Of a stretch of 64,000 nucleotides of DNA, positions 31,001 through 61,120 are shown piece by piece (the first letter of the stretch is position 1; each line of letters begins with the position of its first letter). A model generated the notes under the pieces. The model searched no databases. It had not been told where the DNA came from and was given only the letters and a program-made list of their open reading frames with translations. A program made the position numbers and the translations under genes. Source of the stretch: Chiloscyllium plagiosum. Lineage: Eukaryota. The DNA is taken from assembly GCF_004010195.1 (NCBI RefSeq), contig NC_057727.1, positions 38,343,944 to 38,407,943 on the forward strand, in the 5' to 3' direction.

Positions 31001-34000
31001 CAATTCAGGGGTTGGTGATTTCCTTAGATGCAGAGAAAGCATTTGACGCGGTGGAATGGCCTTATCTTTTTTATGTCTTAGAACAGTTTGGGTTGGGTGG
31101 GGTCTTTGCTAGGTGGGTGGAGGTTTTATATCGCCACTCTCTGGCCGCAGTCATCACCACCAACGGGGTGAAGTCTGGGAAGTTTAGGATTGGTAGGGGT
31201 AGTCGGCAAGGCTGCCTCCTCTCACCATTGTTGTTTACGTTGGTGATAGAGCCGCTGGCAGAGGCCATTCATCAGAACATTCACATTACCACTCCAGAAG
31301 TGGGATCAAGGGCACACAAGATTACACTGTATGCAGATGATTTCCTTCTGTTTTTATCGAACCCGATGACCTCAGTACCCCATTTGATACAATGTTTGGG
31401 ACTATTTCAGGATATAAGATCAACTTTGCAAAATTGGAGGCTATGCCTTTGGGGAACCTTAAGGATGTGCCAGAAGTTGAAGATGGCCTTAAGTTCCCTT
31501 TTAAGTGGTCACAGGCAGGGTTCCAATACCTAGGCATTTTTATTACCCCCAAGTTTGATCTGTTATTTTGGACTAACTTTGCTCACTTGCTCGACAATAT
31601 TAGATGAGATCTCCAGAGATGGGAGGCTCTTCCAATCTCATGGCTGGGCCGAATATCTCTCGTTAAGATAAATGTTCTTCCTCGTTTGCTTTATCCCATG
31701 CGTATGCTCCCTATGTTTCCCAGCTCAACGCTGCAAAAGCTTATGGGATGGTTTGGTTCCTTTGTCTGGCATTGTGGGCGGCCCCTTATCAAACTTACTA
31801 AATTGCAGTTGCCTCGAGGGGGAGGAGTTGATTTCCCAGACATCAGGAGGTATCAACTGAGTTCCCTGCTGTCCTTTGTCTGTGATTGGGTAGGAAACGA
31901 TCCAAACTCAATATGGCTGGATATTGAGGCCTCCCAGGCAAAGTGCCCTCTTATTAACCTGTTGTTCATGGATAAGATGAGGACAGTTATGGGCCACTGC
32001 CAGAATCCCATTGTCATTAGTACAGTCAAGGCACGGAGGGCGATGTGACAGCGTGAGGGTTTTTATCCAAGACTTTGCCACTTACACCTATAGTTGGCAT
32101 GCCAGGGTTCCGACCAGGGGTGATGGACTCAGGGTTCAAACTATGGGCAGCGAGAGGAGTTTCTAGTTTGGGAGACTTGTTTGAGGGGAAGGTTATGATG
32201 TCTTTTGAGTAACTGAACTGCAAATACGGGTGACCCAGCAGAGACCTTTTCTGTTTTTTTAAGGTTAGGGATTTCATCCAGAAGAAGACTACGATTCTCA
32301 CTAAGCCTTATAAGCCCGATACACAAGCACCCTCTCGGTTAGTGCCTCTCTATCGCCTGCTGGGTGTCAGGGCCTGGCAGGATATTAACCCGTTATGTGA
32401 GGTCTGGGAGCAAGAGCTAGGAGTGGAGATCTCTTCTGAAGCATGGAAAACATACGGGAGAGTGCTCGAAAGATCTCAAGCTGTAATAGGACATGCACTA
32501 CGCAGTTAAAAGTTCCGCACAGGCCTCATCAGGCACCAGACCGTCTGGCAAAGTTTAAACAAGGGGCATCTTCAGTGTGCCCCAAATGTAAAATAAGTGT
32601 AGGTACTCTTACTCATTGCTTCTGGACATGCCACAGGCTCCGTGTTTATTGGAGCGCTGTGGCGAGAGAGATAGGGAGGGTATTGAGGACTGAAGTCAAA
32701 GTAGACCCGATATCTCTCCTCTTATGTCTACCGAATTTACCATCTTTAGACAGGCATGGGAAGAAACTATTTAATACTCATGCATACTGTGCACGGAAGA
32801 ATATTCTGATGAATTGGGTGTCTGAGAACCCACTGGGCTTGCTGGGATGGCAGAAATTAACTATGGAGCACATTCCCTTGGACTTTTTACAAACATGGTG
32901 CACCAACAACAGACCATTTTTATAAGACATGGCAGCCCTACTTGAGTTATTTGGATGTAGATTTGTCAGTTATCTTAACTAGGGTATTTGTTTAACCAGG
33001 ATGGTTAGGTTTGTCAAGCCCTGGGCCCTGGAGGGGGTCTCCTGAGTTAATATGGGTATATACACAATGCTCCCGTTCCTTTGTTTGGGAGCTTTGCGCC
33101 GAGCATAGCTGTTCTGTATTTTGTTTAGTTTTGGGGTTTTTTTTGCTTTGTTTTATTTATTAGTTATTTACTTATTTATTAGTTTGCTTTGCACAGTGTT
33201 AGGGTTTGTTTTGTATTATAGGGTAAGTTAATAGTTAGTAGACAGTAGTTGTATTGTAATTTGCAGGGTTTTTTCTTTTTATTATACTGATATTTGTTAC
33301 TCATTGTATTTTTCAATAATTTTATATGTTTGTAAAGTGAGAAAATTTGCTAATAAATATATTTACAAAGAAAAAGGCTATTTGGCCCAACAACTAAATT
33401 GGAAGAGCCTCCCATTTCTGGAGATCCCGCCTAATATTGTCGAGCAGGTGAGCAAAGTGAATCCGGAATAACCGATTGAACATGGGGGTAATAACAATAC
33501 CTAGGTATCGGAAACCCGCCCGTGACCACTTAAAGGGGAACCTAGGGCTACCTTCAACCTCTGGCACTTCCTTGAAGTCCCCCAAGGCATAGCCTCCGAG
33601 TTTGCAAAGTTTATCTTATATCCTGAAATAGCCCCAGATGAATTAATACATTGTATCAAATGGGCTACAGAGATAATTGTGTCTGATAAAAACAGTAGGA
33701 CATCATCAACATACTGTATAATCGTGTGTGCCCTCGATCCCACTTCCGGAGTGGTTATGTGGATGTTCTGATGAATGGCCTCTGCCAGCGGTTCTATCAC
33801 CAACGTAAACAACAATGGTGAAAGGGGGCAGTCTTGACGACTACGCCTACCAATCATAAAGTTCCCAGACTTCACTCCATTGGTGATGACTGCGGCCAGA
33901 TGTGGTGATATAAAACCTCCACCCACCTAGCAAAGACCCCACTCAACCCAAAGTCTCTAAGACATAAAAAAGATACGGCCATTCCACTGGGTCCAATGCT

Positions 34001-37000
34001 TTCTCTGCATCTAAGGAAATCACCAACCCCTGGATCAATCGTTGCTGACAAACTTGGACCATATTCAGCAACCTTCAATTATTATTAGAGGATCTATAGC
34101 CCCTTATAAAATCTGTCTAGTCATCTTTGACAATATGGGGCAACACCTTTTCCAAACTCAGCACCAAAATCTTAGATAGAATCTAAAACTCTGAGTATAA
34201 TAGAGAGATGGGTCTGTCTGGGGCACAATCCTCAGGAACCTTCCCCTTCTTAAGATTGAGGGAAATATTTTCTCAAAGACATTGGTAGGCATTCATACAT
34301 ATAGGAGTGATTGTACATCTCCAACATCGACCCTGACAGAATTCCTATAAACTCCTGATAAATCTCACCCGGGAGACCATCAGGGCCAGGCTGCTTTCCC
34401 ACTCTGAAGTTGCCTAGCTGCCTCCTGTATTTCCTGAACTGTCAAGGGGGCATTAAGTAGAGAGGCCAATTTCAAGGTTACTCCCGGGTGGTTCAGGCTT
34501 GTAAAAAAGGCTTCCATCTTGGCCGTCCTATCCTCGCAACCTTCAGACTGATACAATTCAGAGTAAAAACTCCAAAAAGCCTCATTAATCATTTTGGCAT
34601 CGTGTGTAAAGACCCCAGCGCTGTCTCTAACTGTAGTAATGGATTGGGGTGCATGTTTTTTCCTAGTCAGATACGCTAAATACTTCCCTGGCCTATCCCC
34701 ATACTCAAGTTCTTTCTTTGTGTTTTGCGTCAGTATTGAATCCAAGGCAGCCCAGAGGGCCGTAATCCACTGTAGTTTGGTCACCGAAGGCCTTGCAATA
34801 TGTGCCACCTCAGCAGCTTTCAGCCGCGTTTCAAGTAGCCGCTGCTGCTCCCCGTTCTGTTGTTTCCAACTAGCCGAATAGGAAATAGCTAATCCCATAG
34901 CAGAGGCCTTAGCAGTCTCCCATAGCATAGATGGACTATTAGCCGTGCCTGAGTTGATAGTCAAAAACTCCTGAAACTCAAAATATATTCCACAAATTTG
35001 GAATCCTTAAGGAGAAAAGAATCCAGATGCAAATGCTGCAAACTTAGCCCCTCACTCTTGGCCTTAACCTCCAAATATACTGTCAAATATACATAGATAG
35101 CTATGTTCCCAATTTTACAACCTGTAATCAAATCCAGAAGGGTTAAGGGAGCCAAAAAAAATCAATCCTGCTGTGACATTTATGAGCGTTTGTAAAAAAA
35201 AGGTGAAGTCCCTGCCAGTAGGGTGAAGACATCGCCAATATCCACCAGCTCCAACTCCTCACATAAGTCAATCACCTGTTGGCCTGTGAAGAGATAGTCA
35301 GGGGCCTACAAGTCATCCTGTTTACTGTCTGATCCAAAAGGCAATTGAAATACACCCCTATAATAATGTGTTCTAAAGGCACTCAACTTAGAAAAAGCAA
35401 ATCAAAATCAAAATCAAAAATTTGAGGGGATGCGCTGGAGGACAATAAACATTTAAAATGCCATTCACCTCCCCATGTATCAGGCCCTTACGTATCACAA
35501 AATGCCCTTGCTCATCTTTCACCTGTTCTAATAATGTGTACAAAGATTTTTCTGGATAAGTACAGTGACAGCCCTACTTTTAGTAAAGATTGAAAAGAAT
35601 ACCCAATCATGACCACCCCCCAGCCCCCATCCCCCCACACCCGTTATGGCTTCAGGTTTTCCCCATTGACAAGATGGGTTTTCTGCAACAGGGCAATATT
35701 AACTCTTTCCCTGTTAAGGCTAGAAAGCACTTTTCTTTCCTCTTAAAAGGCAAATGACTTCCCTTAATGTTCCAGGTGCACCATTTAACAAGACACTTAG
35801 CCATATCCCCTTTCAGAGACACTCAAAGCCCCGGGAGAGAGAATCCTGCCTGCAATGCACCAAGCACAAGTAAATGAAGACTCATAGAGTCACAGAATTG
35901 TGTCTACAAAAACCACTCTATCATAATTACAAACATCTATTGCTACCAAAAACCTACAAAGAAAACCAACTATTAAACCTTGAATGGGAGACTCTCCCCC
36001 TGACTGATTTGGAGCACTCACCCTACCCATCCCCTCCTGCACAGCTCCTTCAGGCCCGGACTTAGGCAAGGAGGTGATCCTTAAGTCAACAAAAGAAGAC
36101 AAAGTCAGGATAAGCACTCTGCCCATCCCCGGCTCCATGTCACCCCTCCTTGTGACTAAATGAAAAAACGAACAAAAAAAAGGGAAAACAATAAAGGGCA
36201 CCCACAAAATTTCCCATGATAAAATCCAGTTATAAAAATATAATAGAAACAACATACTCCAATTTTTTTTTGTTTTTCTTATATTATTAGGTAAAGAGAA
36301 AAAAGGTAAAAAGGGAAAATACAGGGAAAGAAGGAAGAGAAGACGAAGATTAAATCCGTCTATTTTAAAGTGTCTACAAAGTTCTTGCTTTATCCACTGA
36401 GTCAAATGTATAAACTGCGTCCTCATGGCTGAAATGGAGCACAGCTGGGTACCTTATGGAGTACTGGATGCCCAGGTTCCTCAGCCTCATTTTAACTTTA
36501 TTGAAGGACTTCTTCGTTCGAATTACAGCAGCCGAGAAATCCTGGAAAAACGTGATCTTTGACCCTTGTGCAGCAGTGCAGTGGGTCTTTTCCCAGTGAT
36601 CTGGAGGCTTCTATCACTTTTTGCTTGTCCCTGTATGTGAGGAAGTGCACTAGGACCAGGCAGGAGAGTTGTACCAGCCCAGACTTGTGCACTCCAATCC
36701 GATAGGCCCTTTCAATCTGCAGCCCTCCAAACTCAATTTGAAAGCTCAGGAACTGCGGCAGCCAGTTTTCTAAGAAGCTGACTGGCTGCCCACATTCTTC
36801 ACCCTCTGGGAGCCTGACAATGCGAAGATTCGTCCTCCGACCTCGATTTTCGAGGTTATTGATCTGGTCTCGTAAGGCCCACACTTGCTGCTCCAGAACC
36901 TGGATCCGACCAGAAGAAGACTTGATTGCTGCTTCCGAGGCTGTGGTTTGACCCTTCACCTCCTCCAGCTACTCCCAGAGGACTTGGAGCTCCCGTTTAT

Positions 37001-40000
37001 GCTTTTGCAGCATGGTCACAATGGGTTGGACCTGGGCACGGATCTCCTCAATCGCAACCTCAACCTTCACAGTAGGTCTCGCCATCCCATCGCCAATTCC
37101 TGTGAGTCTGTCAGGCTGCTGCAGCCTATAGCATACCCGGTGCTGCCAGGGAGTGTCCTTCCTGCTGTTGTTTGCTCGCTCCTTTTCCCTTTAGCATCTT
37201 TCCCACTCCAAATTATCAACGAATAAGCGTTCTTCAAGTTCTTATATTAACAATTCCTATATATAAGTTGGCCAGGGATGGCCAGGAGCAGGAATAAGGC
37301 TTATGCTACTATTAGCCTGTTATGCCATTCAATAAGATTATGCATGATCTTCTTCCTCAAGTTCACTTTTTCATTTCATCCTGATGTCATTTTGAATCCA
37401 AACCTCTGTTGGTCTATCAATGGGAGTATGTAATGGTAGCTATAAAAATAATCTTAAACTACTTTTCATCACACAGTGAGAGAGAACAAAAATACTTTAT
37501 TGTGTCATTTTAAACAGTCACTACAAGCATTGTAGGCTGCAATCCCTGAATCTTAGAATGATGTGTCTTTACTTGGAAAAAGTTATGACAAAATCAGTAA
37601 AAAGGAACATTTGGTGCATCAAAATGGTAGTGTGCTCAATGAACTATCTTCATTCAAATAAACCTCACATATTTTTGTATGTCTTTTAAAGTATTTACAC
37701 CAAGATTGCAGAAAAAAAGAGTTTTCACGTACAGGTTAACGACATTAAGGCAACTCTGTAATGCAGGGAAGGGGAAAAATTCAGCCCTCATGCTTTTGAA
37801 TTAAGTAGCAAATCCACCATGCTGTGAATCTTTAAAACCGCACAACACAATGTGGATGTGGAAATATTGTAGAATTCATTTGAACAATTAGAATAGAATG
37901 TGGAAGTTATTGCTCGGCCATGACGGTCTAGTAAAGACTCGTACACCTGTAAGCAACTTACCTGTAAACAGATGGATAACAAAACGGAGCGTTGTCATTA
38001 ATCGGAAGGATGGTGGCTCTGACAGGAATATCTGCGCACATCTTGTTCTTGTCACATGCTTTAACAGAGAATGTTTGAACTGATTGAAATCTATATGAGT
38101 CTCTATCCATTTGGGATAAAATCATAACACTTCCAGTATCTGAAAAGTAAGCAAAGTTGAAACTTTGGTTTCTTTTGACAACCATGACAAATGTAATCAG
38201 TGAGATACCAACACCTCCTGGATTACTACCAGGCAAGTAAAGGACAGAATGTAAACAAGTTCTCTGTCCAGTTAAAACACAATGACTTATAACAGGGTTG
38301 ATGTAACTGATTTTATTCACATTCCAAAATTTGTTACTTGCTGATTGAAAATTGCCTTTTTCAAAGTTGCTACTGACTACCACAGAATTCCTGCTGTGCA
38401 AAAAGAAGCCATTCAGCCCATCAAGTCTGCACCAAACCCCTAACAGCATCCCAACTAGACCCGACCTCCTAGCCTATCCCCAATATCCCCCTGCTTACCA
38501 CAACCAATCCACCTAGCCTTCACATCCCTGGAAACTATGGGTTAATTTAGCATGGTCAAACCAGCCTCAGGTGACTGTGTGGAGTTTGCATATTCTCCCC
38601 GCATGTGTATGAGTTTCCTCCGGGTGCTTTGGTTTCCTCCCACAGTCCAAAGATGTGTAGGCTAGGTGGGAAATGCAGAGTTACAGGGATGGAGTTGGCT
38701 GTGGGTGGGATGCTCTGTGGAAGGTTGGTGTGTATTTGATGGGACAAATGGCCTACTTCCACACTATTAGGTTTCTATTCTATGAGTCTATGACACTGTG
38801 CAAATAGGGACATGCAACTAACTCATGGATTGGACGGGTAGCATCTCTGGGATACATTATCCTTACTCACTCTGACCTATCTGGATTCTCACAGTATCCT
38901 AGTCTTGCATTGCTTTGCCTTGTCTCTTTGTACTTTGGCCCCTCAGCCAGAGACACCAGGCTCATAGTAATGTGATCTTGCTGTTTAGTGCAGATGCAGA
39001 GCCAGGAAGGTCACAGTTGTCAGCAGGCCTGAGTCAAGTCAAGACTTCACTTAGGAGATCCCAGCACAGTTGGTTATGGGCAGTGTCTGATTACCAGTCC
39101 AGCATGGACACAGTCAGTCAGCCACTTGGGGTGGACTGAGTCAGAACACTCTCCACATAAAGGGTGAGGAGCCAAGTATCAGGTAGCCTACAACCCATCT
39201 GGATACATTTTGTCCTACTGTAAGCTGTTTGACTCTTGGAATGAGAGGCAGGTATTACCGGAGATGAAAGTGAATGACACAGCTGTTACTAATGGTGCAG
39301 GACAAGAGGTGCCCTGAGCAAATGAAGGCATATAAAGTTAGTGGTATCAGGGCATGGGGTGAGAGTGAGTGGGGAACATGTTGCCTGCAATACTGAGAGT
39401 GGTAGAGCATGAGCCTTGGTGGGAGGTGGGGACAGTAACAGAGACTGTGTAAGAGTGAAATATCAGAGAGAAAATGGTGATACTTACATGGGTGGGATGG
39501 AGAGGGGTCATTCTGCTACAGTTATGGGCATTGCTGCAGTCAGCTACACTGATTCCAGTGGCAATGTCAGACAAGGCTGCTGTGGTACGTTGCCATGGCT
39601 TCATCTGCTGCCCTCAGAGAAGAGGATGTCCCATGTTTGCAACCCTAGGTCTACCAGATTCCTGCCCACAAAGCGGGCACCAAACTGTCCTTGTCTGTCA
39701 TGCCTGATGCAAATGTCAGGAATTATGCCAGTCAGCTCCTGGATAATGCTGCTTGTACAGGTATACAAAAGTAATTTTAAAGATGATGCCAGTGATAAGG
39801 ATGCCAGTCAATTCCAGATATTCTGACAGCAGTGTGTTGTTCCAGTGCATAGTAAGATGCTGCTAGAATTGGACTAGACAATGGCATTAGGGGTGAGGCA
39901 GGTAATTAATGAGAAGATACACTGAATTAAACACTGGATGGGCACTTGAGTGACCAGCAGCAGGACTTCCCCAGGATTACACTTACCTGAGGCATCAATC

Positions 40001-43000: not shown

Positions 43001-46000
43001 CAAGTGGGCAGAATTAAAATTCACACTGAGGTGATTCTAGAGATAAGAAGAAGGCAAGGGATAAGTCAAGCGAATAATTTGTAGTGAATCACATACTGTA
43101 CCTGAAGAGGCTGGAATATTATCCCTGAGCCTCAAACTATGCCAACCATCATGCTGCACAGTCTCCTATCAAATCCAGGAGAGGTGGTGACTGTCAATGA
43201 GCTCTGTCCCACAGTAAACCATGTCCTTCAATGCACTATTGTCTCCCAACCTTATATATTGAGCTGCTCCCCTTTTACAATTATTGTTCCCTCTGCATCC
43301 CAGCATGCTGTTTCCAACCCCACACTTGACCTGCACAACTTCTCTCCACTGCAGTGGCTGATGCTAAATTCCAATTCCCAGGATTTACCATGGGCCACAC
43401 CCCTGATCGACTTGGATGGACAGCCCCAGTTGAGGAGTGGCTGGGTCCTGACTGATATCTGTGTAGTTTTGACTGAAATAACAAATCCCCATACTGGTTG
43501 CACTGGACCTGCAGACTGTGTCCTATTCCCTGGAGTGCAGTAGTACAGACTCCCTGGGGCTAAATGTTCCAAGTGGCTAATTGACAATATCAGACAAGCC
43601 CGTATTCTGAGATCAGACATTGCCTTTGTTGCACGAGTAGCTCTTGATTGAAGGCTGTTTTGCATGACATGACTAAGGATTACTCCTTTTTGACTTTGAA
43701 ACACGGCCACATGGCTGATTCGCCTTCAGTGTGTTTATTGTGTAAACACCAATATCCTATAATCAAATTTACAGATGATACTGAAATATGTGACAAAGTA
43801 AGCTGCAATAAAGGAACAGACATTTATAATGGATATAGATCAATTAGGTGAATGGACCAAAATTTGGCAGATACAGTTTAACGTGGATTAGTGTGAGGTT
43901 AACCATTTTGATCAGAATAATAAAAAAGGTAATCATCATTTAAATAGAAAGAAACTTCAAAATGTTTTGGTACAAGTGGATCTGGGTGTCCTTGCCCATG
44001 AGTCACAGAAAGCTAGTATGCAGGTACAACAGGCAATAAGGAGGACAAATGGGAATTTTGGCATTCATTGCAAAGGGAATAGACATAAAAATAGGTTAGT
44101 ATACAAAGCACTCATAAGATTGTATCTATATCAATGACATGCTTCTAGCATGTGTTGGGAATCCTGATTATGTCCAAAACAGCAATTCTCCTGCTCCTCG
44201 GATGCTGCCTGACCTTCTGTGCTTTTCCAGCACCACACCCTCAACTCTAACCTCCAGCATCTGCAGTCCTCACTTTCTCCTCCTGATTCCCATTGTGAGG
44301 CAATCTAAAACGAGAGGTTATAATTTTTGGCTAAAGGAAGGTAAATTTAAACAGAGATTAGGATGAATCACTTCTCTCAAAGAGTTGTGAATCTGTGGAA
44401 TTCACTACTCAAAGGTGCAGTGGATTCCAAGACATTGAATAAAATTAAGGAAGAGAGACAGATTTTTAATTAGTTATGGGTTAAAGGACTATGGGGAGCA
44501 GGCACGCAGGCAAGTGGAGTGGAGGTCAAGATGAGGTCAACCATAAGTGCATTAAATGGCGGAGTAGGTTCAAGGGATTGAATTGCATTATACTATTCCT
44601 ATATCTTATGTTCTTCTGTAAGGCTTCAGCACATGCTAGAAGCATGACATTGATGTAGAACTGCGCCATACAGCAACATGTCTATCCATTTGACCGATCA
44701 CTGCTGACAGTTAAGACAATCTAGGAGAAAGTGAGGACTGCATATGCTGGAGATCAGAGCTTAAAAATGTGTTGCTGAAAAAGCGCAGCAGGTCAGGCAG
44801 CATCAAAGGAGAAGGAGAATCGACGTTTTGGGCATAAGCCCTTCTTCAGGAATGAAAACGTCGATTCTCCTTCTCCTTTGATGCTGCCTGACCTGCTGCG
44901 CTTTTCCAGCAACACATTTTTAAGCTAAGACAATCTGCTTGGTTTTGAGTCTGCACTCAATCGTTCAGCAAGATAGAAGGACTGTGAGCCTTTAAGCTCT
45001 GCTGGAGGGTACAAATGCAGAAGAGGTAAAGGCAAGGCAGAGTTACTACAAACATCCCAGCGGGCACAAAGTGAGTGGCCATGAAGCGAGCAAGCGAGGA
45101 GTGCTGAGATGTATCCTGGTCTAATTCATGAAATGGGCAGTTGTCTCCTGGTAGTTGAGAGTGTGGTGCTGGAAAAGCATAGCAGGTCAGACAGCATCTG
45201 AGAAGCAACAGAATTGAATTTTTCGGCATAAGCCCTTCATCAGGAACGAGGCTTGTGGGCTGAGGGGCTGAGAGATAAATGGAAGGGGAGTGGGATTGGA
45301 GGGAAGGTCGCTGAGAATGCAATAGGTAGATGAAGGTGAGGGAGAAGGTGATAGGTCAGAGAGGAAATAGAGTAGATAGCTGGGTAAAGTGATGGACAGC
45401 TCAGGAAGGTGGTGCTGAGTTGGAGGCTTGGGACTGGGATAGTGGTGGGGGAGGGAAACTGTTGAAATCCACATTGATCCCATGTGGTTGCAGGGTCCCA
45501 ATGCGGAATATGAAGCATTCTTCCTCCAGGCATCGGGTGGTAACGATTTAGCAATGCAGGAGGCCCAGGACCTCTCATTGGGAGGGGGTGTTGAACTGTT
45601 CAGCCACAGGGCGGTGGGGTTGCTTGGTGCGGGTTGCCTCCTAGCAGTAGCATTACAATGAAAGGGTATTTCCCTCCAATATGTGATACTGAAGTAGAAA
45701 GCCGTTAGTGGGTCAGGGATGTGCCATGATGAAGTGGTGAGGCTGGTGCACATCTGATGTCAACTTCTATTGAGAGGGCTGTTGCAGGTATTCACTGCCT
45801 GTGTGGAGCATGCCCTGAGATGGTTGGAACTGCTGTCCCAGATGGAAGCTCAGAGGAGCAAGCAGTGAGCTGCATTGTCACTTCTGATTTCTATCCAGCG
45901 CCTGGGAGAATAGCAAAGTTTATATCAGAGGTGAGATTAGGCACTAATGGCATGCCAATGTTTATTTTTGCTGCTCACTAGTGCGATTTTCACCTCACCA

Positions 46001-49000
46001 TTCAAAATTTGATTGCAGAAAGGCATTTGGTATGCTTTCCTTTATTGGCCAGAGCATTGAGTATAGGAGTTGGGAGGCCATGTTGCGGCTGTACAGGACA
46101 TTGGTTAGGCCACTTTTGGAATATTGCATGAAATTCTGGTCACCCTCCTATCAAAATGATGTTGTGAAATTTGAAAGTGTTCAGAAAATATTTACAAGGA
46201 TGTGCCAGGGTTGGAGGATTTGAGCAATAAGGAGAGGCTGAATAGGCTGAGGCTGTTTTCCCTGGAACATTGGAACTGAGGGGTGACCTAATAGAGGTTT
46301 AAAAAATCATGACAGGCATGGATAGGATAAACTGACATGGTCTTTTCGCTGGGGTGGGGTAGTCCAGAACTAGAGGGCATAGGTTAGGGTAAGAGGGAAA
46401 TATATAAATGGGATGTATGGGACAACATTTTCACGCAGAGGATGGTGCATGTATGGAATGAGCTGCCAGAGGAAGTAGTGGAGGCTGGTACAATTACAGC
46501 ATTTAAAAGACATCTGGATGGGTGTATGAATAGGAAGGGATTAGAGAGATATGGGCCAAGTGCTGGTAAATGGGACTATATTAGATTAGGATTCTGCTCG
46601 GCATAGACGAGTTGGACCGAGTTGTACATCGCTATGACTGTATGACTCTAATTGCATTTTTCTCAATAATAAAAATCTAATTTTTCCAATTTCATCATAT
46701 TTTCCCAACTGTCTCATCGTTTCCCATATCATTCAAATCTGGGAAAATGTGACTCTATGATGTTTTAACAAAATTATTATTTGTGTTCATTGTCTGCAAT
46801 CCAGTGAGGGTTTAGACAAAGCAGAACCCAACATGCCATTACTTACTGGAACCTCCTCCAGCACCACAACTCTCTGACATAAAAAATATAAATTACTAGA
46901 GAAATTCTATAGGTCTGGCTCTATCTGTGGAGAGAAAGCAGAGTTAATATTTAGGGTTCAGTGATCCTTAGTCAGAACTGATTGTAGCTAGGAAAAGGTT
47001 GGATATATGCTGAAACTGGGGTGGGGAGAGAGGGCAGGAGTAACTACTAGGTGGAGATGGAGCCCAGAGAGAGAGAATAGCAGTTGGGCAGAAAAAGCAC
47101 TGAGTAATGGTCAGCCTGCTTCTTGTGCATGCACAATTATATTGCTTTATCATTGATTGGAATGGCTTGTCCACAGAGCTCCTGTTCTGTATCTTTGCTG
47201 CTCTTAATCCCTCAGCCTATTTTAAGATGCTCCCTAAAGGATTCTTCATGAACCAGCTCAGTGGTTAACATTGCTGCCTCACAGCGCCAGGAACAAATGT
47301 TTGATTGCAGTCTTGTAGAACAGTCTGTGTGGAGTTTGCACATTCTCCCTGTGACTGCATGGATTTCCTCCAGATACTCCGGTTTCCTCGCACAGTCCAA
47401 AAACATGCAGGTTACATGGATTGGTCATGCTAAATTGTCCATAGTGTCCAGGGATGTGCAGGCTAGGTGGATTGCAGGGTTACAGAATCTGGGTTGGATA
47501 CTCTTTAGAGGGTCACTGTGGACTTGATGGGCTGACTGGCCTGCTTCCACACCGTAGGGATTCTATGATATGAAGCAAGTTTTTGGCCAGATGCTCTAAT
47601 TTCATCTTAAGTGCCTAGGTATTACATTGTTCTTTACAGTGCTCCTATGAAGTACCTTGGAACATTTTCTTACATAAAAGGGACCACATAAATTAAAGTT
47701 GCTATTGAGACCTTGATAATTCATCTGCTCCAGTATAAATTTAACATAAAACTTAAAAACATTTGGTGCTAAAGAGAACTTGAAATTTTACTCCCTGATA
47801 AAGAGAAGCACCCCAGCAGCAAAAACCAGGCACACAAAACTTCTTGTGATTTGATGAGATAAACAAATTAAACACTGCCTGGCTGCAGAGTGGACCAGAA
47901 CGCAATCCTCTCAGCCAGGAAGAAAGATGATTCAAAGCTTATATGCAATGAGTTTTACATAATAGTCATTAGCTGCAAGACAAAGCCACCCAAAAGCTCA
48001 ATGTTCATTAGTATTTGAATGTTACAAGGAGTATTCAATTGTGTATAATTATGAAACATGGGATTTGCTTTGGCCATGTATTCAGCATGTTCTTCTGAGA
48101 TTGTGTGATATGAACATTATTAAGCTGGCATGGGTTAAACTTCATCTTACCTCTAACCAGAGCTGTAATGCGTTTGGGAAATCTGGATACAAAAAAGTTG
48201 GAGAATTTTCAATGCTCAGCACAGCCATTCTTCATTTTAACCAGAACAAAAGAAGAAACATCCTCCAGCTTAAAATGTAACTAAATAGACTATTTGCTAA
48301 CTTGAGACTTATCATCAGAACAATGACCAGTTGAAATTTCAACATTGAAAGCTCATGGGAATTTCCAAAATGTTTAACCTCAGTCATTCTTAACCAAACA
48401 TGTTTCTCCTTATTCCAGTTGAAGGGATAATGGGGCCAATTTTGACACAGCAGTCCTGCCACCAGCCAGCCTCGCCAGTTAACTTGAAAATTTAGGTGCA
48501 AACTGCAGACTGTGTCCACATGATTAATTTCAATGGTAGGCAGCACTTGAACTTCTGAAACATGCTATTGTTCAATCATTTTGCTTTCCAATAGTACAGT
48601 CCAGTAAAATACACCACAATATGCAATGCAGTTCATAAATTAATTGGACACTTACATGCACGACAATACTGGAGTATTGTCATTGACGTTGGTGATGAAC
48701 ACTTTCACAGTTCCAACAATGAACAAAGCATTTGTGTCCTCCACCTTCACTGATAACAAATAGCTTCAAATGATAATGACTTGCATTAGTTATACAGAAA
48801 TGTGGTTAATAATCGATGTAGAGTAATTGGCATTTGAGAATAGTATTGAAATACATATTAATGTTTATTTCTACTTGTAGCGTTCTCTCTCTCTCGAGAG
48901 GTTGTCCCAATCACTCAGCATGTCTATTTTTTTTGTAAATTCTTGCTCCTATCTGCTCAGCACGTTGAATATGGATGTACAATTGTATTCCTTTGTCCAC

Positions 49001-49027
49001 GTTCTTGAGATACAAGGAATAATGCTG

Positions 49028-49097
<70 letters not shown>

Positions 49098-52000
49098 CAG
49101 CATTATTCCTTGTATCTCAAGAACGTGGACAAAGGAATACAATTGTACATCCATATTCAACGTGCTGAGCAGATAGGAGCAAGAATTTACAAAAAAAATA
49201 GACATGCTGAGTGATTGGGACAACCTACACCAGATATGATTTGGAGATGCGGTGTTGGACTGAGGTGTACAAAGTTAAAAATCACACAACACCAGGTTAT
49301 AGTCCAAAAGGTTTAATTGGAAGCACTAGCTTTCAGAGCGGCGTTCAGGACACCACCTGATGAAGGAGCGGCGCTCCGAAAGCTAGTGCTTCCAATTAAA
49401 CCTGTTGGACAATAACCTGATGTTGTATGATTTTTAACTTTGTACACCAGATAAGAATCAATGTTGAGAAGTGTAATGTACTTTTTGCTCCAAGAATTAC
49501 AACAATATCTTCTTAATGGCAGTAGATTAGGAACTGTAAAGGAGCCAACAGATTTGTGTATCTCAACAGATAATCCCAGAAAAATATCTTACAATATTAA
49601 AAGTCATCAAAAGTGTAATAAACCTGTCTTTGGAGTGGGGACCTGGTGAGGGTGCATCATGAAAATCAGCTTCCTGAAGTTCATCTCAGAATGCTGGTGC
49701 CTCTGGAACAACAAGTGCTGTCAGGGAGCAGAGAATGGGAAACCCTCTCACCAGGGTGATAAATTCCTTAAGGAAATTGTTAGTCTATTCAATGGATATT
49801 CGAGTTCATAGTTTCTTTTACCAAATCCAATAGTCTAGTGCATAGCTGTCAGGCTTACCACAGGGTCAAAAAAGGTTTATAGAGTCATAGAATCGTCAAG
49901 TCATAAGTTTTCCAAAATACACTAGTCCCACTTGCCTCTAATCCTCTAAACCTTTCCTATTCATGTACCTGTTCAAAAGTTTTTAAAAATGTTTTAACTG
50001 TAACTGCATCTACCACTTCCTCTGGCAGTTCATTCCACATACAAACCACCATCTGTGTGGAAAAGTTGCCCCTCAGGTCCCTTTAACATCTTTCTCTTCT
50101 CACCCTAAAAAATGACCTCTAGAATTGAACTCCCCTACCCTCGGAAAAATAAACCTTTGCTATTCACTTTATCTGTGCCCCTCATGATGTTATAAGGCTC
50201 TATAAGGTCATCCCTCAAATTCCTACAATCCAATGAAAAAAGGTTTCAGCCTATCCATCCTCTCCTTATACCTCAAACCCTCCAGTCCAGGCAACATCCT
50301 TGTAAATCTTTTCTAAATCGTCTCCAAGTTAATAATACAAATGATTTTGATGGGCCAAATGACTCCAGACAGATGCCTACTTTAGTCCCTGTTTCTGGGA
50401 GGATACTGGCATGTCCCAATGTAGCTACCACCTGCCTTTGCTGCTGACAGCAGACAGTCAGTTCCTGCCTCCTGTAGGAGCTTGGCGCCACTCACTGAGT
50501 ACCAAATTTACCTCCTGACAGATTTGAACATTTAAATTTTAAAAATAACATTGCAAGAGTGCCACAGTTGAGGCACTAGCTTATGACCTGGAGTTCACCC
50601 AGGTCTTTGGTTCCCAAACACACTATGAAAATGTGACCCATAAAATGTTGGCCTTTATTTCTTAGCATGCAGCATTAAATAAAGAGAAACGTCCTGTCGT
50701 ATCAGTCCTATGATATTCCCCAAGTATGAAGTATTATAGCAAGGAAGCCAACTATTTTATAACCTGTTGACAAATTTTTTAAATATTTCCTTGATACTTT
50801 GCTTTATTTCCAGCAAAGCACTATCTGTCAACAAAATTAACCAGACTTTTGTGGGAAAGTATTCAGGCAAACAAGGTTTACAGTTTACCATTATTCAAAC
50901 AACATAAGCTAACTATCATGTCCACACAGAGCATTATACTGTAGCTGACAAGGCCTTCAACATTCATCTAGACATTACTAATCAAGTAATGCATTCTTTT
51001 CTGCATGTCCTCCGGCAGATTGCAAAGATTGCCTTCACTTCTTGTCTATATTTTCTCCCACAACTACTCAACATGGTTATTCTCTATCTCATAGAGGCAT
51101 TTCTCTGTTTTCTCACCCCAAATATAGGAGAGAGAAGCAATTCGCAACCATCGAGTACTCTAGTATAATGTCAGTACAAGCCTTCCAAATTTTGTTTTGA
51201 GATCTACAGCTTCCAAGCTACTCTAGACGCTATGTTCCAGGTGAAATCATGCACTGGAGTTCCTTTCTGATGAAAAATTATATTTGAAACATAACACATT
51301 GGGCAAGGTTTTGGCTTTGGAATCAGGACTGCAATTTGAAACCAACTGGGAGATCCTTGCCTACACAAAATATATCTCCCACCATCCTCTGGATTTATCT
51401 CCTCATGTCACTAAAAATCTTGCCCATTATTTCACTACATAGAAACTGATTAATCTGCTGAGTATTTTCTGTATTCCTTTCTTCTTGTTTTAGATTTATA
51501 ACATTTACAACATTTTTGATTTTGCTCCCCTTCACTATAAACCATTATATATTAAGTTGGGTAGAATAGAACATCAGAAATTTGCCCTTTACACTCAGTT
51601 TTCAATTTCACTTCATTAAAATTGAACTGTTATTAATTTTTGCCCTTGTTCAGCTTTATGGAAGCAAAATAAACTTGATTCAAATTGTTGACATTCTTCA
51701 TTTTAGACTGAACTACACCAAATGATCTTGTGAGCAGGTTAGAAACAGAGATGTCATTGATTTAAAGTTAAATAGAAAGCAGGCTAAAACTTGAATCAGT
51801 TTCACAGCTATTAATTTCAATTCTTGAATAAATGACAATAGAGAAATTAGAATGGAAACGACTCTAGCCTATGCACTAAGTGTGTGGGTGCAACCCTTTG
51901 TCTTTGTGACTGAGCTCACTCCACTTCTTCTAAGTATCTCTATTAATTTCAGCATGCAATATCTCCGTCACATTACTCCATGAAACCATGAATTTAAATA

Positions 52001-58000: not shown

Positions 58001-60149
58001 TTTCAAATTAATTTAAATGCATTTTGAGGCCTTCTCAATACAGCTTAATGTTTGAAGTTTATCCATGAGGAAATCAAGGATCATGTACTTAGGAATGGAG
58101 GAAGACCTTTCAACTTGCCCACTCTAGAATTATCCCATCTCCAATTCCACCTCAGGTTTACTCAATTGGGTCCAGGACTCACATTCTGGTGAATTATGAC
58201 CATTGACATCACAAAATCACAGTCCCCCAGAAGTCTGAAGATGCAATCCCAATTCCCCACTTCCAGGGGAAAATTGGGCCATCAGTCTTAGTTTTCCTAC
58301 TCTCTAACTTTCAGTGCTACTCTGTATACTCTCGAATGATTAATCCCAATTTCTGTATTATCCAGCTATCATAGAGGTATTTTAACTTTTCAAACCCACT
58401 GAAAGTTGGGCAGACCTATTAGAATGTAAGAATCTCCTGACAGGTTTCCCAACTCTGAAATCAGCCTAATTGATAGTTTTGGCTTCCAGCCAGGCAGGGA
58501 ATAGTGGAGAAGAGGTATCACTATCAGGCAGATTCAGACACAAATCTGGAGTAGGAATTCTGACCATGAATACCATTTCCTGATCTCAAGGAAGGATCCA
58601 ATTCTTGATTCCATAGAGTCTGGTCAGAGGCTATGTGCTGTTGTGTTGCACCACGTGATTCAATCACCTTGATACTGTTCCCTAAGGACTGAACATCACT
58701 CTGTGAAGTTTATTGGCAGATGGGGAAGTCAGTAAATAGAACTAACTTTGGTTTTGATTTTATTCATAATTTTTCTATATTGATGTGCATTGTATAAAAT
58801 CTCAAAATTGCATGAAAATCTTAGATTTAGTTTACTTTTATTTGTGATCCACCAGTCACCTTTCTTGAATGAGAGAGCAGCTCTATGGCGGTAGGACTAA
58901 TGTGACTTTATCTTTACCTAATCGTTGGGTCAGTATAATTATTTAATGTTTCTTGTTGTGATCGATCTGCAGAAACACGATATACACATATTGTTTCAAC
59001 CTTCCTTTCCTTTAAATCTTGCATTTCTCTTTAATATTTAAGTTATATCATTTTGAGCTATAGGGAGAGGCTGAATAAGCTGTGACTATTTTCCCTAGGG
59101 CATCAGAAGCTGAGGGGTGACCTTACAGAGGTTTATAAAATCATGAGGGGCATGGGTAGGATAAATAGACAAAGTCTTTTCCCTGGGGTGGGCGAGTCCA
59201 AAACTAGAGGGCATAGGTTTAAAATGAGAGGGGAAAGATTTAAAGGGGCAACTTTTTCAGGTAGAGGGTGTTGTGTGTATGGAATGAGCTGCCAGAGGAA
59301 GTGGTGGAGGTTGGTACAATTACAGCATTTAAAAAGCATCTGGATGGGTACATGAATAGGAAGGGTTAAGAGGGATATGGGCCAAATGCTGGCAAGTGGG
59401 GCAAGATTAATTTAGCAAATCCGGTCAGCATGGATGAGTTGCAATGAGGATCTGTTTCCATGCTGTACATCTCCATGACTCTACTTGTGTCACTATGAAA
59501 CAGAAGTATCTTACCTGGCTCTTGGTGATACTGATATGCAACTTAGATCAATGTAATAATATTTCCAAACTGTGAGGAAATGCCATGTGATCACACCTCC
59601 AAGAATACATCAGACAAGAGTTCACAATTCCAAATAACCAGGAGTCAGAATGACACTGAAGAAACTGGGAACCAGACTGAGACTGAACAAACTGTGGAAA
59701 TTCATAACTTCAACAAACCTGCAGCATTTCTCCAAAGTATTTCTATGAAAGTAAAAAACCGTACTAAATATCATTTTATCTCTCAGATTATATTTTAATG
59801 TTCAAATTTGTAAGCAATTATTGCTCAGACAAATAACTAAAAAGATACATAAATTTATATTCTTAAAGTCTTGCTTTTTAGATTCTGCAATTTTATAAAG
59901 TAATCTATACACAGAAACTCTAGAAAGTAAGTGCTTTAAAACTTACATCCCACATATTTGTTGTATTTGGAATTATATCAAATGGATATTGAGCAGGATC
60001 AGCATTAATGATTACTGGACCACCAATTAATTTATCTCCTGCAGGCAAAGCAACTGTAATTGTAGTGAGTAGATGATGGATTTTTGCATCTTCTTGAAGG
60101 TTAAGATTCAATGGGTTCACACCAGAAATAGTTGGTGCACAATGAGTAC
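832..60149 (-). CDS. CDHR3: Cadherin-related family member 3-like gene, multi-exon; 14 coding exons in window (about 748 aa), 5' and 3' ends not found
   Basis: Exon lengths 203,166,92,92,108,185,178,163,97,99,233,172,236,221 splice GT-AG in one open frame. Cadherin motifs present: LDFE/LDYE, DxNDNxP, AxDxD. Segments EENDEKP, GNVNNHF and Y-x-P-x-AWY(I/V)PF before the TM helix match human CDHR3 as I recall it. Orthology versus a CDHR3/CDHR4-type paralog is not proven. Confidence 0.85.
1990..2225 (-). CDS. CDHR3: CDHR3-like exon, EC6 C-half plus Thr-rich stalk (GNVNNHFGF...TRTTTPTTTSFY)
   Basis: Within ORF 1756..2298; cag acceptor, gtgagt donor; 236 nt, phase 1 to 0. Confidence 0.92.
2956..3976. 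mobile_element. Penelope-derived inverted-arm element, family 2, spanning an N-gap
   Basis: Arm ~2995-3209 is inverted against 3300-3332 plus 3832-3972; aattgggg TSD at 2946-2953 and 3977-3984; hammerhead cores in both arms. Confidence 0.75.
3045..3079 (-). ncRNA. Minimal type I hammerhead motif; stem III palindrome mutated (AGGU)
   Basis: Minus strand reads CAC-CUGAUGA-A-GGAGC AGU GCUCC-GAAA-GGUA-GUG. Confidence 0.65.
4740..4945 (+). mobile_element. Old L2-type LINE/SINE 3' tail
   Basis: ccttgaaacccatctttttagccaagc...ctgtggaataccttagggcattt...taaaggc; similar to 47195-47705. Confidence 0.45.
5241..5412 (-). CDS. CDHR3: CDHR3-like exon, EC6 N-half (VIINILEENDEKPVC...LNCRDKDS...EIVS)
   Basis: EENDEKP motif as in CDHR3; tag acceptor, G|gtatgt donor; 172 nt, phase 0 to 1. 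Confidence 0.92.
8251..8483 (-). CDS. CDHR3: CDHR3-like exon, EC5 (SKQKIGRVIATDDDYP...FWIDPKEGTIELITQSDYES...AVTR)
   Basis: ATDDD, FWIDP and DYE motifs; tag acceptor, CGG|gtgaga donor; 233 nt, phase 1 to 0. Confidence 0.92.
10511..12290 (-). mobile_element. Decayed 5'-truncated CR1 LINE (RT and 3' end)
   Basis: ORF fragments SQLGFIKGTSCLTNLLKYFE...DVVYVD and WQIQYGMAKCEVV; CR1 tail at ~10511-10600. Confidence 0.85.
12336..12590. mobile_element. Penelope-derived hairpin element, family 1, with hammerhead cores on both strands
   Basis: Arms ~12343-12428 and ~12464-12549 are near-perfect reverse complements; 16-bp TSD ctataaggat(g/a)taagg at 12320-12335 and 12591-12606; CTGATGA..GAAACGTC at 12466-12493. 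Confidence 0.8.
13700..14290 (+). mobile_element. 3' end of a CR1/L2-clade LINE of a different family from the main CR1
   Basis: Decayed MEYSPLVWMGAAPTTLKKFDTIQ; tail aataaatgctgacccaaccagtgat; second copy at 40310-40860. Confidence 0.65.
14382..14480 (-). CDS. CDHR3: CDHR3-like exon, EC4/EC5 linker (ATATVFVEITPVNDFSPIFEKDPYIFDVLESTA)
   Basis: PVNDFSP motif; cag acceptor, gtgagt donor; 99 nt, phase 1 to 1. Confidence 0.9.
15705..15912. mobile_element. Penelope-derived hairpin element, family 1
   Basis: 14-bp TSD gctccttcaagata at 15691-15704 and 15913-15926; inverted arms; CTGAAGA-A-GGGC TTAT GCCC-GAAACGTC at 15824-15851. Confidence 0.8.
15823..15852 (+). ncRNA. Hammerhead catalytic core intact; stem I reduced to 1 bp
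   Basis: CUGAAGA, stem II GGGC/GCCC, GAAA, palindromic ACGU, GUC cleavage triplet. Confidence 0.6.
17149..17245 (-). CDS. CDHR3: CDHR3-like exon, EC4 (VGLKDLDYEDADVAAVGHTYQMTIAASDSTHT)
   Basis: DLDYE motif; tag acceptor, G|gtgagt donor; 97 nt, phase 0 to 1. Confidence 0.88.
17446..17913 (+). mobile_element. Probable solo LTR interrupted by a poly(A) retro-insertion
   Basis: Starts TG; CCAAT-like (gattgg) and TATAAA motifs, AATAAA at ~17865; split at a 15-bp duplication. Confidence 0.5.
17563..17780 (+). mobile_element. 5'-truncated non-LTR 3' end with A-rich tail
   Basis: AATAAA then A-rich tail; TSD ataaataggagtgtc at 17548-17562 and 17781-17795. Confidence 0.7.
19112..19274 (-). CDS. CDHR3: CDHR3-like exon, EC4 N-half (RTTLPELLLRDTVVAVLICKDSDTPRDALTYVPQSGPLGPG...VIQ)
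   Basis: PE and CxDxD motifs; tag acceptor, CAG|gttgga donor; 163 nt, phase 2 to 0; translated by hand. Confidence 0.85.
19622..23805. mobile_element. Family-2 hairpin element whose two arms (19622-19732, ~23735-23805) enclose a CR1
   Basis: 12-bp TSD ctttgtgttcca at 19610-19621 and 23806-23817; arms match the element at 49237-49442. Confidence 0.75.
19735..23724 (+). mobile_element. Near full-length, disabled CR1 LINE (ORF1 zinc finger/zipper plus SGNH esterase; ORF2 APE-RT)
   Basis: CTSCQMWE..YICHKC; IVLGDSLV, FPGA, HIGTND; DFNFPNIDW; SDH; KSPGPD; NYRPVSL; QHGFVRGKSCLTNL; (TATGACTC) tail; two N-gaps. Confidence 0.92.
24906..26290 (-). mobile_element. L1 element A, 3' part (ORF2 C-terminus, 3' UTR, poly(A))
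   Basis: Poly(T) at 24906; reverse complement aligns to element B 31965-33375. Confidence 0.85.
26295..33375 (+). mobile_element. L1 element B, full length but disabled (ORF1 ~26353-27220; ORF2 from ~27840, split by CR1)
   Basis: ORF1 MPKGKG...PRPVLVHF...FFQDFSA; ORF2 WNIKG, ISDH, YRPISLLN, DAEKAFD, GSRQGCLLSP, YADD, CPKC..H..C; AATAAA and A tail. Confidence 0.92.
27857..29257 (+). mobile_element. 5'-truncated CR1 inserted into L1-B ORF2
   Basis: KSPGPD, NYRPISL, FADD; tail tatgtcttatggtcttat; L1 sequence resumes at tattaaatggtgcacctgg. Confidence 0.9.
33376..37276 (-). mobile_element. L1 element A, 5' part (ORF1 ATG ~37197, ORF2 ATG ~35804)
   Basis: LENRGRRTNLRIVRLPEGEE..IERAYR; MAKCLVKWCTWNIKG; SRQDCPLSP; QYVDD. 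Confidence 0.9.
37962..38139 (-). CDS. CDHR3: CDHR3-like exon, EC3 C-half (NTGSVMILSQMDRD...PINDNAPFCYPSVY)
   Basis: DRD and INDNAP motifs; cag acceptor, AG|gtaagt donor; 178 nt, phase 1 to 2. Confidence 0.9.
38378..38795. mobile_element. Two HE1-like V-SINE fragments in opposite orientation (minus ~38378-38558, plus ~38560-38795)
   Basis: V-domain gtgtggagtttgcatattctccc...tttcctccgggtgct..ggtttcctcccacagtccaaaga; CR1-like tails at both outer ends. Confidence 0.7.
40310..40860 (+). mobile_element. CR1/L2-clade LINE 3' end, same family as 13700-14290
   Basis: agtaactcacttcctgacctcccaaagc...tggatgggtgcag...caataaatg. Confidence 0.6.
41372..41556 (-). CDS. CDHR3: CDHR3-like exon, EC3 N-half (MINGKETDFG...DEELAVGTVIATCIATDADD...YFAVDK)
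   Basis: EE and ATDAD motifs; tag acceptor, gtaagt donor; 185 nt, phase 2 to 1. Confidence 0.9.
41755..41928. mobile_element. Tc1/mariner-type (Tigger-like) MITE
   Basis: TA|CAGAGGAACCTTGAT...ATCGAGGTTCCTCTC|TA; internal repeats of cattcgattatcc. Confidence 0.75.
42045..42255 (-). mobile_element. tRNA-derived SINE
   Basis: Minus strand has ctcagctgg (A-box-like) and gggttcaatcc (B-box); same tail seen on + at ~58850-58918. Confidence 0.55.
42394..42608. mobile_element. Tc1/mariner-type MITE
   Basis: TA|CAGGTAGTTCTTCTATAAC...GTTATAGCACCATGCCTG|TA, imperfect terminal inverted repeats. Confidence 0.65.
43750..44615 (+). mobile_element. Decayed CR1 3' fragment with internal deletion
   Basis: KFTDDT (FADD-like), WQIQFNV, ctgtggaattcact, tail tattcctatatcttatg. 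Confidence 0.75.
44170..44280 (+). mobile_element. Single-arm family-1 Penelope tail
   Basis: TSD tcctgatt at 44162-44169 and 44281-44288; decayed hammerhead 3' half. Confidence 0.65.
44723..44925. mobile_element. Penelope-derived hairpin element, family 1
   Basis: 11-bp TSD taagacaatct at 44712-44722 and 44926-44936; arms ~44758-44828 and ~44855-44926; minus-strand core CTGAAGA..CCC-AAAACGTC (G12 to A). Confidence 0.8.
45152..45640 (-). mobile_element. Penelope-like element 3' fragment: GIY-YIG endonuclease C-terminus plus pseudo-LTR with decayed hammerhead
   Basis: Hand translation gives QPHRPVAEQFN...CLEEECFIFRIGTLQPHGINVDF, typical of a PLE ORF end; followed by a pyrimidine-rich tract and CTGATGAAGGGCTTATGCCGAAA at ~45221-45243. 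Confidence 0.8.
46015..46650 (+). mobile_element. CR1 3' fragment, same family as 23050-23724
   Basis: KAFGMLSFIGQSIEYRSW..LYRTLVRPLLEYC; tatgactgtatgactc tail. Confidence 0.88.
46881..47120 (-). mobile_element. Decayed Penelope pseudo-LTR, family 3
   Basis: Minus strand gttCTGACTAAGGATCACTGAACCCTAAATATTaac looks like a degenerate hammerhead with GTT/AAC stem I. Confidence 0.45.
47255..47571 (+). mobile_element. HE1-like tRNA-derived V-SINE inserted in an L2-type tail
   Basis: gctcagtggtt A-box, V-domain, ttctatgatatg tail. Confidence 0.75.
48656..48763 (-). CDS. CDHR3: CDHR3-like exon, EC2 end (SYLLSVKVEDTNALFIVGTVKVFITNVNDNTPVLSC)
   Basis: NVNDNTP Ca-binding motif; aag acceptor, gtaagt donor; 108 nt, phase 2 to 2. 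Confidence 0.88.
48899..49226. repeat. Perfect ~330-bp palindrome centred on (CT)n(GA)n
   Basis: About 130 nt of unique sequence is duplicated in exact reverse complement; the ORF track gives near-identical peptides on both strands. Confidence 0.95.
49237..49442. mobile_element. Penelope-derived hairpin element, family 2
   Basis: 11-bp TSD tacaccagata at 49226-49236 and 49443-49453; arms ~49264-49345 and ~49366-49448. Confidence 0.82.
49354..49388 (+). ncRNA. Intact minimal type I hammerhead ribozyme motif
   Basis: CAC-CUGAUGA-A-GGAGC GGC GCUCC-GAA-AGCU-A^GUG: stem I CAC/GUG, 5-bp stem II, palindromic AGCU, CUA cleavage triplet. Confidence 0.75.
49880..50330 (-). mobile_element. CR1 3' fragment
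   Basis: tagagtcatagaatc tail; reverse complement resembles 23220-23720. Confidence 0.8.
52116..52207 (-). CDS. CDHR3: CDHR3-like exon, EC2 (YSLSGITDFQIDLVGSISVANILDYENSTR)
   Basis: LDYE motif; cag acceptor, AG|gtaaac donor; 92 nt, phase 0 to 2. Confidence 0.88.
53619..53710 (-). CDS. CDHR3: CDHR3-like exon, EC2 (DVEVYIAENTAVNTPIYKVAAKDPDENDALT)
   Basis: AEN and AxDxD motifs; cag acceptor, gtaagt donor; 92 nt, phase 1 to 0; translated by hand. Confidence 0.9.
57050..57215 (-). CDS. CDHR3: CDHR3-like exon, EC1 C-half (LVTTNSPKLDFET...DVNEPPVFLGPLGEK)
   Basis: LDFE and DVNEPP motifs; tag acceptor, G|gtatat donor; 166 nt, phase 0 to 1. Confidence 0.92.
59055..59483 (+). mobile_element. CR1 3' fragment
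   Basis: MRGMGRINRQSLFPGVGESKTRGHRF; catgactcta tail. Confidence 0.85.
59947..60149 (-). CDS. CDHR3: CDHR3-like exon, EC1 N-half (xTHCAPTISGVNPLNLNLQEDA...TTNMWD)
   Basis: ccag acceptor, GAT|gtaagt donor, phase 1 to 0, 203 nt; lies within ORF 59920..60177. Confidence 0.85.
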
Positions 60150-60574: not shown

Positions 60575-61120
60575 TTAGGAACAGAGGAACAGGAATATTC
60601 CTTTCAGCGCCTCAAGCCTGCTCCAATATTCAGTGAGGTAATGGCTGATATGTGACCTAACCCCACATACCTGTCTTAAGCCAATATCCCTTTTCTTAAC
60701 AAAATCTGACCTATCTCAGATTTAAAATTAACAACCAAACTAGTCTCCATTGCCATTTGTGGAATAGACAAGAAGCGCTGGAATCCAAGGTAGACAAGCA
60801 GGAGACTGGACGAACACAGCAAGCCAGGCAGCATCAGGAGGTGCATTTTGTGGAAGAGAGTTCCAAATATCTACCACCTCTTGTTATAGGAGTGCTTCCT
60901 ACCATCTCTCTTTAACAGTCTGGCCCTAATTCTCAGACTATGTCCCTGAGTTCAAGAATCCCCAACCAGTGGAAATAGTTTATCTTCATCTACCCTGTCT
61001 TTTCTTGTTAATATCTTGACGACATTGATCAGATCATCCCTTAACCTTTTAAGTTTTAGAGAGAACAGGCCTAATTTGTGTAATCTCTCCACATAGCTTA
61101 ACACTGAAGTCCAAGTGTCA
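60575..61120 (-). mobile_element. CR1 3' fragment containing an ~80-bp insert (60765-60846)
   Basis: LSYVERLHKLGLFSLKLKRLRDDLI; insert flanked by tttgtggaa duplication and resembling Penelope tails (cacagcaagccaggcagcatc). Confidence 0.75.

Follow-up and report, generated by a model that had tools for sequence, protein, structure and literature searches.

A hammerhead-bearing hairpin insert in a Chiloscyllium plagiosum intron as a probable integration product of a Penelope-like element

The hairpin insert at positions 49226-49453 of a 64,000-nucleotide stretch of Chiloscyllium plagiosum DNA (hereafter the window) is probably a one-off integration product of an endonuclease-bearing (EN+) Penelope-like element (PLE), consisting of head-to-head 5'-truncated copies of its pLTR, for which both target strands would have been primed from two RT start sites. 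The original prediction had described an insert of ~205 bp with an 11-bp TSD, two inverted arms and an unpaired extension at one end, and all of these parts are present. The exact 11-bp TSD copies (49226-49236 and 49443-49453) are separated by 206 bp, and the arms (49264-49346 and 49366-49448) differ at 7 positions over 83 bp. A TSD match of at least 11 bp was seen in 0.14% of random flank pairs. Inside the TSD are two head-to-head 5'-truncated pLTR copies, one tailed and one tail-less. Judged from its sequence, the insert resembles, and has the testable anatomy of, an inverted-pLTR insertion of an EN+ PLE, minimal hammerhead included: inverted and 5'-truncated pLTR copies in head-to-head layout, a one-sided tail (28-34 nt in the focal insert) and a short TSD of variable length (8-16 bp among the hairpins of the window).

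Both boundaries of the insert are ambiguous. On the left, A49236 is the last base of the TSD and also fits the start of the tail of its family (family A), which occupies 49236-49263 on the minus strand and is 28 nt long, or up to 34 nt given the ambiguity of its right end. This tail ends 120 nt downstream of C3 of the hammerhead, as do two other family A arms, the end of the family A tail lies ~112 nt past stem II, and 25 of the 34 nt of the focal tail are A or C as counted by hand. The left arm (49264-49346) is a pLTR copy that is sense on the minus strand and is truncated inside stem II, without the CUGANGA core. It meets the other copy at a complex head-to-head junction (49341-49351), which has more than one parse and differs from that of the other family A hairpin. 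The right arm (49352-49448, plus strand) is a tail-less pLTR copy that starts ~5 nt before C3, so that only one focal arm keeps the hammerhead core. This arm continues into the right TSD (49443-49453), whose first 6 nt are identical to element sequence, and an identity of 6 nt at the tail-less end would be expected at ~2e-4 at a fixed register, a post hoc figure. We infer that these 6 nt at the right TSD suggest priming microhomology. No tRNA gene was found, hence no tRNA-derived SINE head was detected. A perfect palindrome (48899-49226) with 160-bp arms, 0 mismatches and the centre (CT)14/(GA)18 adjoins the insert, its right edge coinciding with the base at which the focal TSD begins. It looks much younger than the focal insert and is probably an assembly turn-around at a self-complementary microsatellite.

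The minimal type I hammerhead layout proposed for 49354-49388 on the plus strand was confirmed base by base from the sequence and with a script. It consists of a stem I of only 3 bp (C49354-G49388, A49355-U49387 and C49356-G49386), the core CUGAUGA (49357-63), an extra A between core and stem II (49364), the 5-bp stem II GGAGC/GCUCC (49365-69/49373-77), GAAA (49378-81), the palindromic AGCU (49381-84) and A49385 as H17, after which cleavage is predicted. This strict layout occurs once in the 64-kb window and in none of 300 dinucleotide shuffles, and the bare core pattern has 8 matches in the window versus 0.82 expected; thus, the layout is not a product of chance. The covariance-model search that had been proposed as a check did not recover it, as Rfam gave 0 hammerhead matches in the whole window at the gathering score and none among 10 weak matches in 49200-49500. 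In addition, bacterial and archaeal genomes were scanned for the exact pattern, with 0 matches. Of the three family A copies in which the core is complete, two have an identical stem II and one a broken stem II, and the stem of a second family (family B) has one G-C to A-U double change, which adjoins a broken pair. A lone hammerhead-like core at 51267-51293 (+), which has a 4-bp A-U stem II, a non-palindromic centre and no homologue in the window, is either from a decayed third family or due to chance.

The extra A after A9 is tolerated in the plus-strand hammerhead of CChMVd. The focal motif has the features of the metazoan PLE minimal hammerhead, namely CUGANGA, the extra nucleotide, G10.1-C11.1, GAAA, a palindromic 15.2-16.2 and UH. 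The available text of PMC4209133 counts the extra nucleotide among the features that PLE hammerheads conserve, so that the extra A is expected and is no oddity. According to the same excerpts, the known motifs are, like the focal one, of type I, with an extra nucleotide between 9 and 10.1, G10.1-C11.1 and a palindromic 15.2-16.2 without loop 3, and occur, like those in the window, as dispersed single motifs and as opposite-strand pairs, the pairs being sometimes found 100-700 bp apart in pLTRs of metazoan PLEs (Cervera and de la Pena 2014, PMC4209133). In coelacanth and Xenopus a genome contains thousands of them, and shark is not among the organisms named in the excerpts. The differences lie in the stem I/II lengths (3/5 bp in the focal motif versus 4-5/7-8 in Schistosoma and 2/6 in D. 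virilis) and in the core, which is kept in only one of the focal arms. The focal hammerhead is the normal pLTR motif of PLEs. As a ribozyme it is unremarkable, since minimal hammerheads are standard in PLE terminal repeats and number in the thousands in genomes of fish and amphibians.

There are five TSD-flanked hairpins of two families in the window, and a tail end is paired with a tail-less end in all five. Their TSDs are 8, 11, 11, 14 and 16 bp long, and the inserts measure 203, 206, 208 and 255 bp, the fifth being long and gapped. Counted from C3, the 3' ends of 15 arms fall at +120 to +127 in seven (the tail) and at +80 to +92 in another seven, the remaining one being an internal fragment; the 5' starts are at -7 to +21 in 11 arms and far upstream in three, besides the fragment, and no arm begins at the cleavage site (+28/+29), all of these being local-alignment ends accurate to a few nucleotides. 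This bunching of arm starts in the hammerhead or immediately ahead of it is the surviving lead; the arms may stop there because the transcript starts there, because structure causes stalling or because strands anneal through stem II. Family A has three loci besides the focal insert. The first is a longer hairpin (2956-3973), whose tail is on the left and whose arms extend upstream of C3 by 133 nt or more; it has damaged hammerheads at 3076 (-) and 3892 (+), an 8-bp TSD-like repeat and a 500-N gap inside. The others are a solo arm with tail, truncated at GAAA (19622-19723, minus strand), and a solo tail-less arm (23744-23811, plus strand), so that the sample from this one 64-kb window holds two family A hairpins, one of them containing a gap. 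Judged by arm symmetry, the gap (3333-3832) probably hides only ~40 bp of actual sequence. Within the window family A lacks an ORF and is linked to no sequence of an RT or endonuclease; an antisense 45-codon frame had no Pfam or Atlas match and was treated as spurious.

Family B has no BLAST similarity to family A, yet it has the same hammerhead layout and the same hairpin-plus-tail anatomy. In the window it is represented by three TSD-flanked hairpins, two solo arms and one fragment (12339-12593, 15706-15916, 44168-44281, 44722-44926, 45153-45640 and 60806-60840). The hairpin at 12339-12593 has a 16-bp TSD with one mismatch, and at its centre an exact 23-bp tandem duplication (12404-12450) has doubled the hammerhead core and stem II; that at 15706-15916 has a 14-bp TSD and 4 nt of microhomology at its tail-less end, and that at 44722-44926 an 11-bp TSD. 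We take the tail of this family (12570-12595, 15704-15730 and 44720-44745) to resemble a 3' splice site, with a branch-point-like motif, a pyrimidine tract and an end just before A/AG. A 33-bp flank occurs twice in opposite orientation (44125-44157/44627-44659) and encloses a solo arm of family B together with adjacent repeat DNA, possibly as a small inversion. The solo copy at 45153-45640 (minus strand) contains the broken C-terminus of a GIY-YIG endonuclease (45640-45407), a UTR and a damaged hammerhead (45243). Its broken upstream frame aligns with the C-terminal part of a protein from whale shark (54% over 85 columns, E 1e-18), in which Pfam places RT and GIY-YIG domains. An HMMER protein search gave four matches, two of which (P0019 and P0021) are homologous, the other two being repetitive and set aside. 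With the 48-aa endonuclease piece, none of 13 candidates passed in a word-based protein search, and the sole Pfam match (E 0.14) was irrelevant; a PDB search with P0023 gave 0 matches. In addition, the terminal peptide of a zebra-shark gene model belonging to this family would fit a read-through into the family B hammerhead, and P0022, a relative of family B, has a Cys-rich linker between RT and EN, which is suggestive of Neptune according to the accessible text of PMC8557442. Homology at the protein level thus identifies family B directly as a PLE, and anatomy together with the analogy to family B supports the same assignment for family A. As for the claim that Penelope machinery mobilised the insert, the PLE-type anatomy supports it, and the endonuclease link holds for the sister family B only and not for family A.

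It is known, as far as excerpts of the sources go, that PLE insertions are 5'-truncated, often with an inverted copy, a one-sided 30-40-bp tail and short TSDs (PMC8557442, PMC3846280, PMC8969392). The inverted truncated copy, the head-to-head layout, the tail at one end (30-40 bp in the described cases) and short TSDs (8-10 bp in those cases) are common to the focal insert and the inverted-pLTR insertions of EN+ PLEs, although those described in the available parts usually enclose an ORF or a tandem unit, while the focal copies are 85-125 nt long and meet in the hammerhead (PMC3846280, PMC8557442, PMC2377424). The purified PLE of Anolis carolinensis (Poseidon, PAc) nicks and extends both strands, as proposed here, and starts RT at two sites that flank the tail, in an AC-rich stem-loop lying 111-118 nt past stem II. 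It uses uncleaved RNA, hammerhead cleavage is dispensable for insertion in vitro, and the ribozyme is protein-assisted (PMC11167929). The distance from tail to stem II is similar in PAc and the focal family (111-118 versus ~112 nt), and both tails are AC-rich. However, PAc is reported to initiate without homology to the target (PMC11167929), in contrast to the 6 nt at the proximal end of the focal insert, and its ORF begins at stem II, while in family A the corresponding frame stops after 8 codons. We assume that the enzyme of the element might make staggered nicks 11 nt apart and that both 3' ends would be extended on uncleaved element RNA, one cDNA starting from the distal site (the tail end) and the other from the proximal site, where 6 nt of primer-template homology could have helped priming at the focal insert. 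Both cDNAs would end in the hammerhead region and then be joined via short self-complementary segments there. More tentatively, and with rather less confidence than in the origin of the insert itself, the hammerhead region may mark the template's 5' end or the joining point, and the hairpins may be a large fossil record of two-strand priming from two start sites. In D. virilis, according to the available excerpts, the transcript start lies 46 nt before an intron (PMC2377424), and the intron end maps to helix I (PMC4209133).

Similar arms would also be compatible with fold-back copying or gene conversion, and self-priming has been proposed for PLEs (PMC3846280, in excerpt). It is nevertheless unlikely that a PLE primed only once and that its cDNA then primed itself or folded back at the hammerhead stem, the second end being joined by microhomology. 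Such a course would account for private variants common to the arms of one hairpin, for hairpin centres that fall in a self-complementary region and for tail-less ends with microhomology, which is 6 nt (focal), 4 nt and 1 nt at the resolvable ends; fold-back copying does fit the hairpin at 44722. The divergence between arms is 5.1% within hairpins versus 17.5% between loci in family B, and only 7.2% versus 9.2% in family A, a weak signal for the focal family. What speaks against it is the position of the core, since in two of the four resolvable hairpins (the focal one and that at 15706) the tail-less arm holds an unpaired core that is absent from the tail arm; a simple fold-back of the tail-bearing cDNA would thus be excluded for both, and a tail-less cDNA could not have templated the tail of the other arm. 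Furthermore, the tail-less ends are narrowly clustered (+80 to +92), and tail-less arms also occur alone (23744 and 45153).

The focal insert is intronic. A CDHR3-like cadherin gene on the minus strand (867-62038, ~15 exon matches) spans nearly the whole window, and the insert lies between its exons at 52207-52121 (upstream) and 48765-48658 (downstream). The host exon is most similar to cadherin-related family member 3-like proteins, the best being those of Chiloscyllium and Stegostoma (89-96% identity). Within one CDHR3-like intron there is a large inverted LINE pair (24923-37233), whose copies share 74-82% identity, contain RT and ORF1-like frames and are presumably L1/Tx1-like, and dispersed repeats occur at 23079-23729, 46020-46651, 49943-50317 and 59052-59483 and at 38505-38785 and 47325-47573, presumably LINE 3' ends and a SINE-like family; the solo family A arm at 23744 directly follows the first of them. 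With the motif on the plus strand and the gene on the minus strand, the intact hammerhead lies in antisense relative to the host pre-mRNA; on its minus strand the insert contains no CUGANGA. In the folding model, stems I and II form in the isolated 35-mer with probabilities of 0.84 and 0.98, but the probability of stem I falls to 0.08 with the whole right arm. In the full-element RNA the hammerhead fold costs 32.9 kcal/mol, with a stem II probability of ~1e-6, and this probability stays below 0.01 while the transcript elongates across the motif; the folding energy of the focal hairpin is -128.7 kcal/mol (z -20). These values are from an equilibrium model that ignores protein chaperoning, though the Anolis ribozyme needs it. 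As a duplex between two stem II segments is favoured over the AGCU dimer in a free two-copy cofold, dimer activity has no model support even for the isolated motif. The nearest same-strand partner of the focal hammerhead is a damaged copy 45 kb off (3892), whose stem II is broken. Excerpts of two studies report that PLE pLTR hammerheads are inactive as monomers and weak as dimers (PMC4209133) and that one of nine Xenopus retrozyme dimers was cleaved in vitro (bioRxiv 2026.07.22.740005). The claim of a working ribozyme is therefore not supported, as the motif lacks a tandem partner, runs antisense to the host gene and is hidden within the hairpin, and given the 32.9 kcal/mol penalty, the core-less minus strand and the host gene on that strand, the ribozyme at this locus is most likely an inactive passenger.

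The insert had also been taken for a non-autonomous propagating unit of ~205 bp. It is very unlikely that such a hairpin has a working ribozyme, is transcribed in its own right and is copied by PLE proteins in trans, even though three of the five hairpins have inserts of 203-208 bp, since a similar size also follows from two fixed start sites together with ends in the hammerhead. According to the accessible text of the sources, pLTR sequences are able to mobilise unrelated DNA in trans (PMC3846280) and PLE derivatives of this kind exist (PMC8557442; bioRxiv 2026.07.22.740005), and a minus-strand transcript of the host intron would leave the sense tail unpaired. However, a propagating unit should keep its centre, and the centres differ in all four same-family pairs, a small sample; both families have longer parent copies (2956-3973 in family A), the ribozyme is sequestered in the hairpin according to the folding model, and none of the 15 arms starts at the cleavage site. 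Equally improbable is a more elaborate version, in which shark PLEs would yield ~205-bp hammerhead-centred hairpins, some of them now self-propagating as non-autonomous 'inverted retrozymes' that are transcribed from introns with the RT start tail unpaired, the antisense arm locking the ribozyme off so that the template stays uncut. Non-LTR retrozymes, as described in excerpts of PMC7229834 and bioRxiv 2026.07.22.740005, share with the insert their non-coding nature, a type I hammerhead and kinship to pLTRs, and are present in the sole chondrichthyan sampled, but they are head-to-tail tandems whose same-strand ribozymes can dimerise and give circles, whereas the focal arms are an inverted pair. 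No array of the retrozyme type (head-to-tail with at least two same-strand hammerheads) is found among the nine tandem-repeat rows of the window, and the absence of tandem units and the inverted arms speak against this identity. Least probable of all, and largely refuted already, is a MITE-like DNA transposon, a miRNA-like hairpin in which the hammerhead pattern is incidental, or an artefact of assembly comparable to the adjoining palindrome: to the long inverted arms with a TSD, an Rfam match to MIR845_1 at 46 bits (a generic hairpin that matches both strands, below the gathering score of 81) and the 0-mismatch palindrome abutting the focal TSD are opposed asymmetric ends with a one-sided tail in place of symmetric TIRs, TSDs of 8-16 bp in place of a fixed length, solo arms, a hammerhead core conserved in two otherwise dissimilar families, arms that differ at 7 of 83 positions and an anatomy that recurs at four other loci.

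No paper specifically on PLE hairpins of sharks was found in a search that missed most of the subscription literature, and repeat databases (Repbase/Dfam) may well contain families A and B already. The value of the focal hairpin is mechanistic and concerns PLE integration and the role of the hammerhead, since short TSD-flanked hairpins show, for each single event, both start sites, how far apart the nicks were and where synthesis stopped. A genome-wide count of such hairpins could probe two-strand priming in vivo and why the arms avoid the ribozyme cut site. For the host, PLE hairpins of this kind insert long double-stranded hairpins into its introns.
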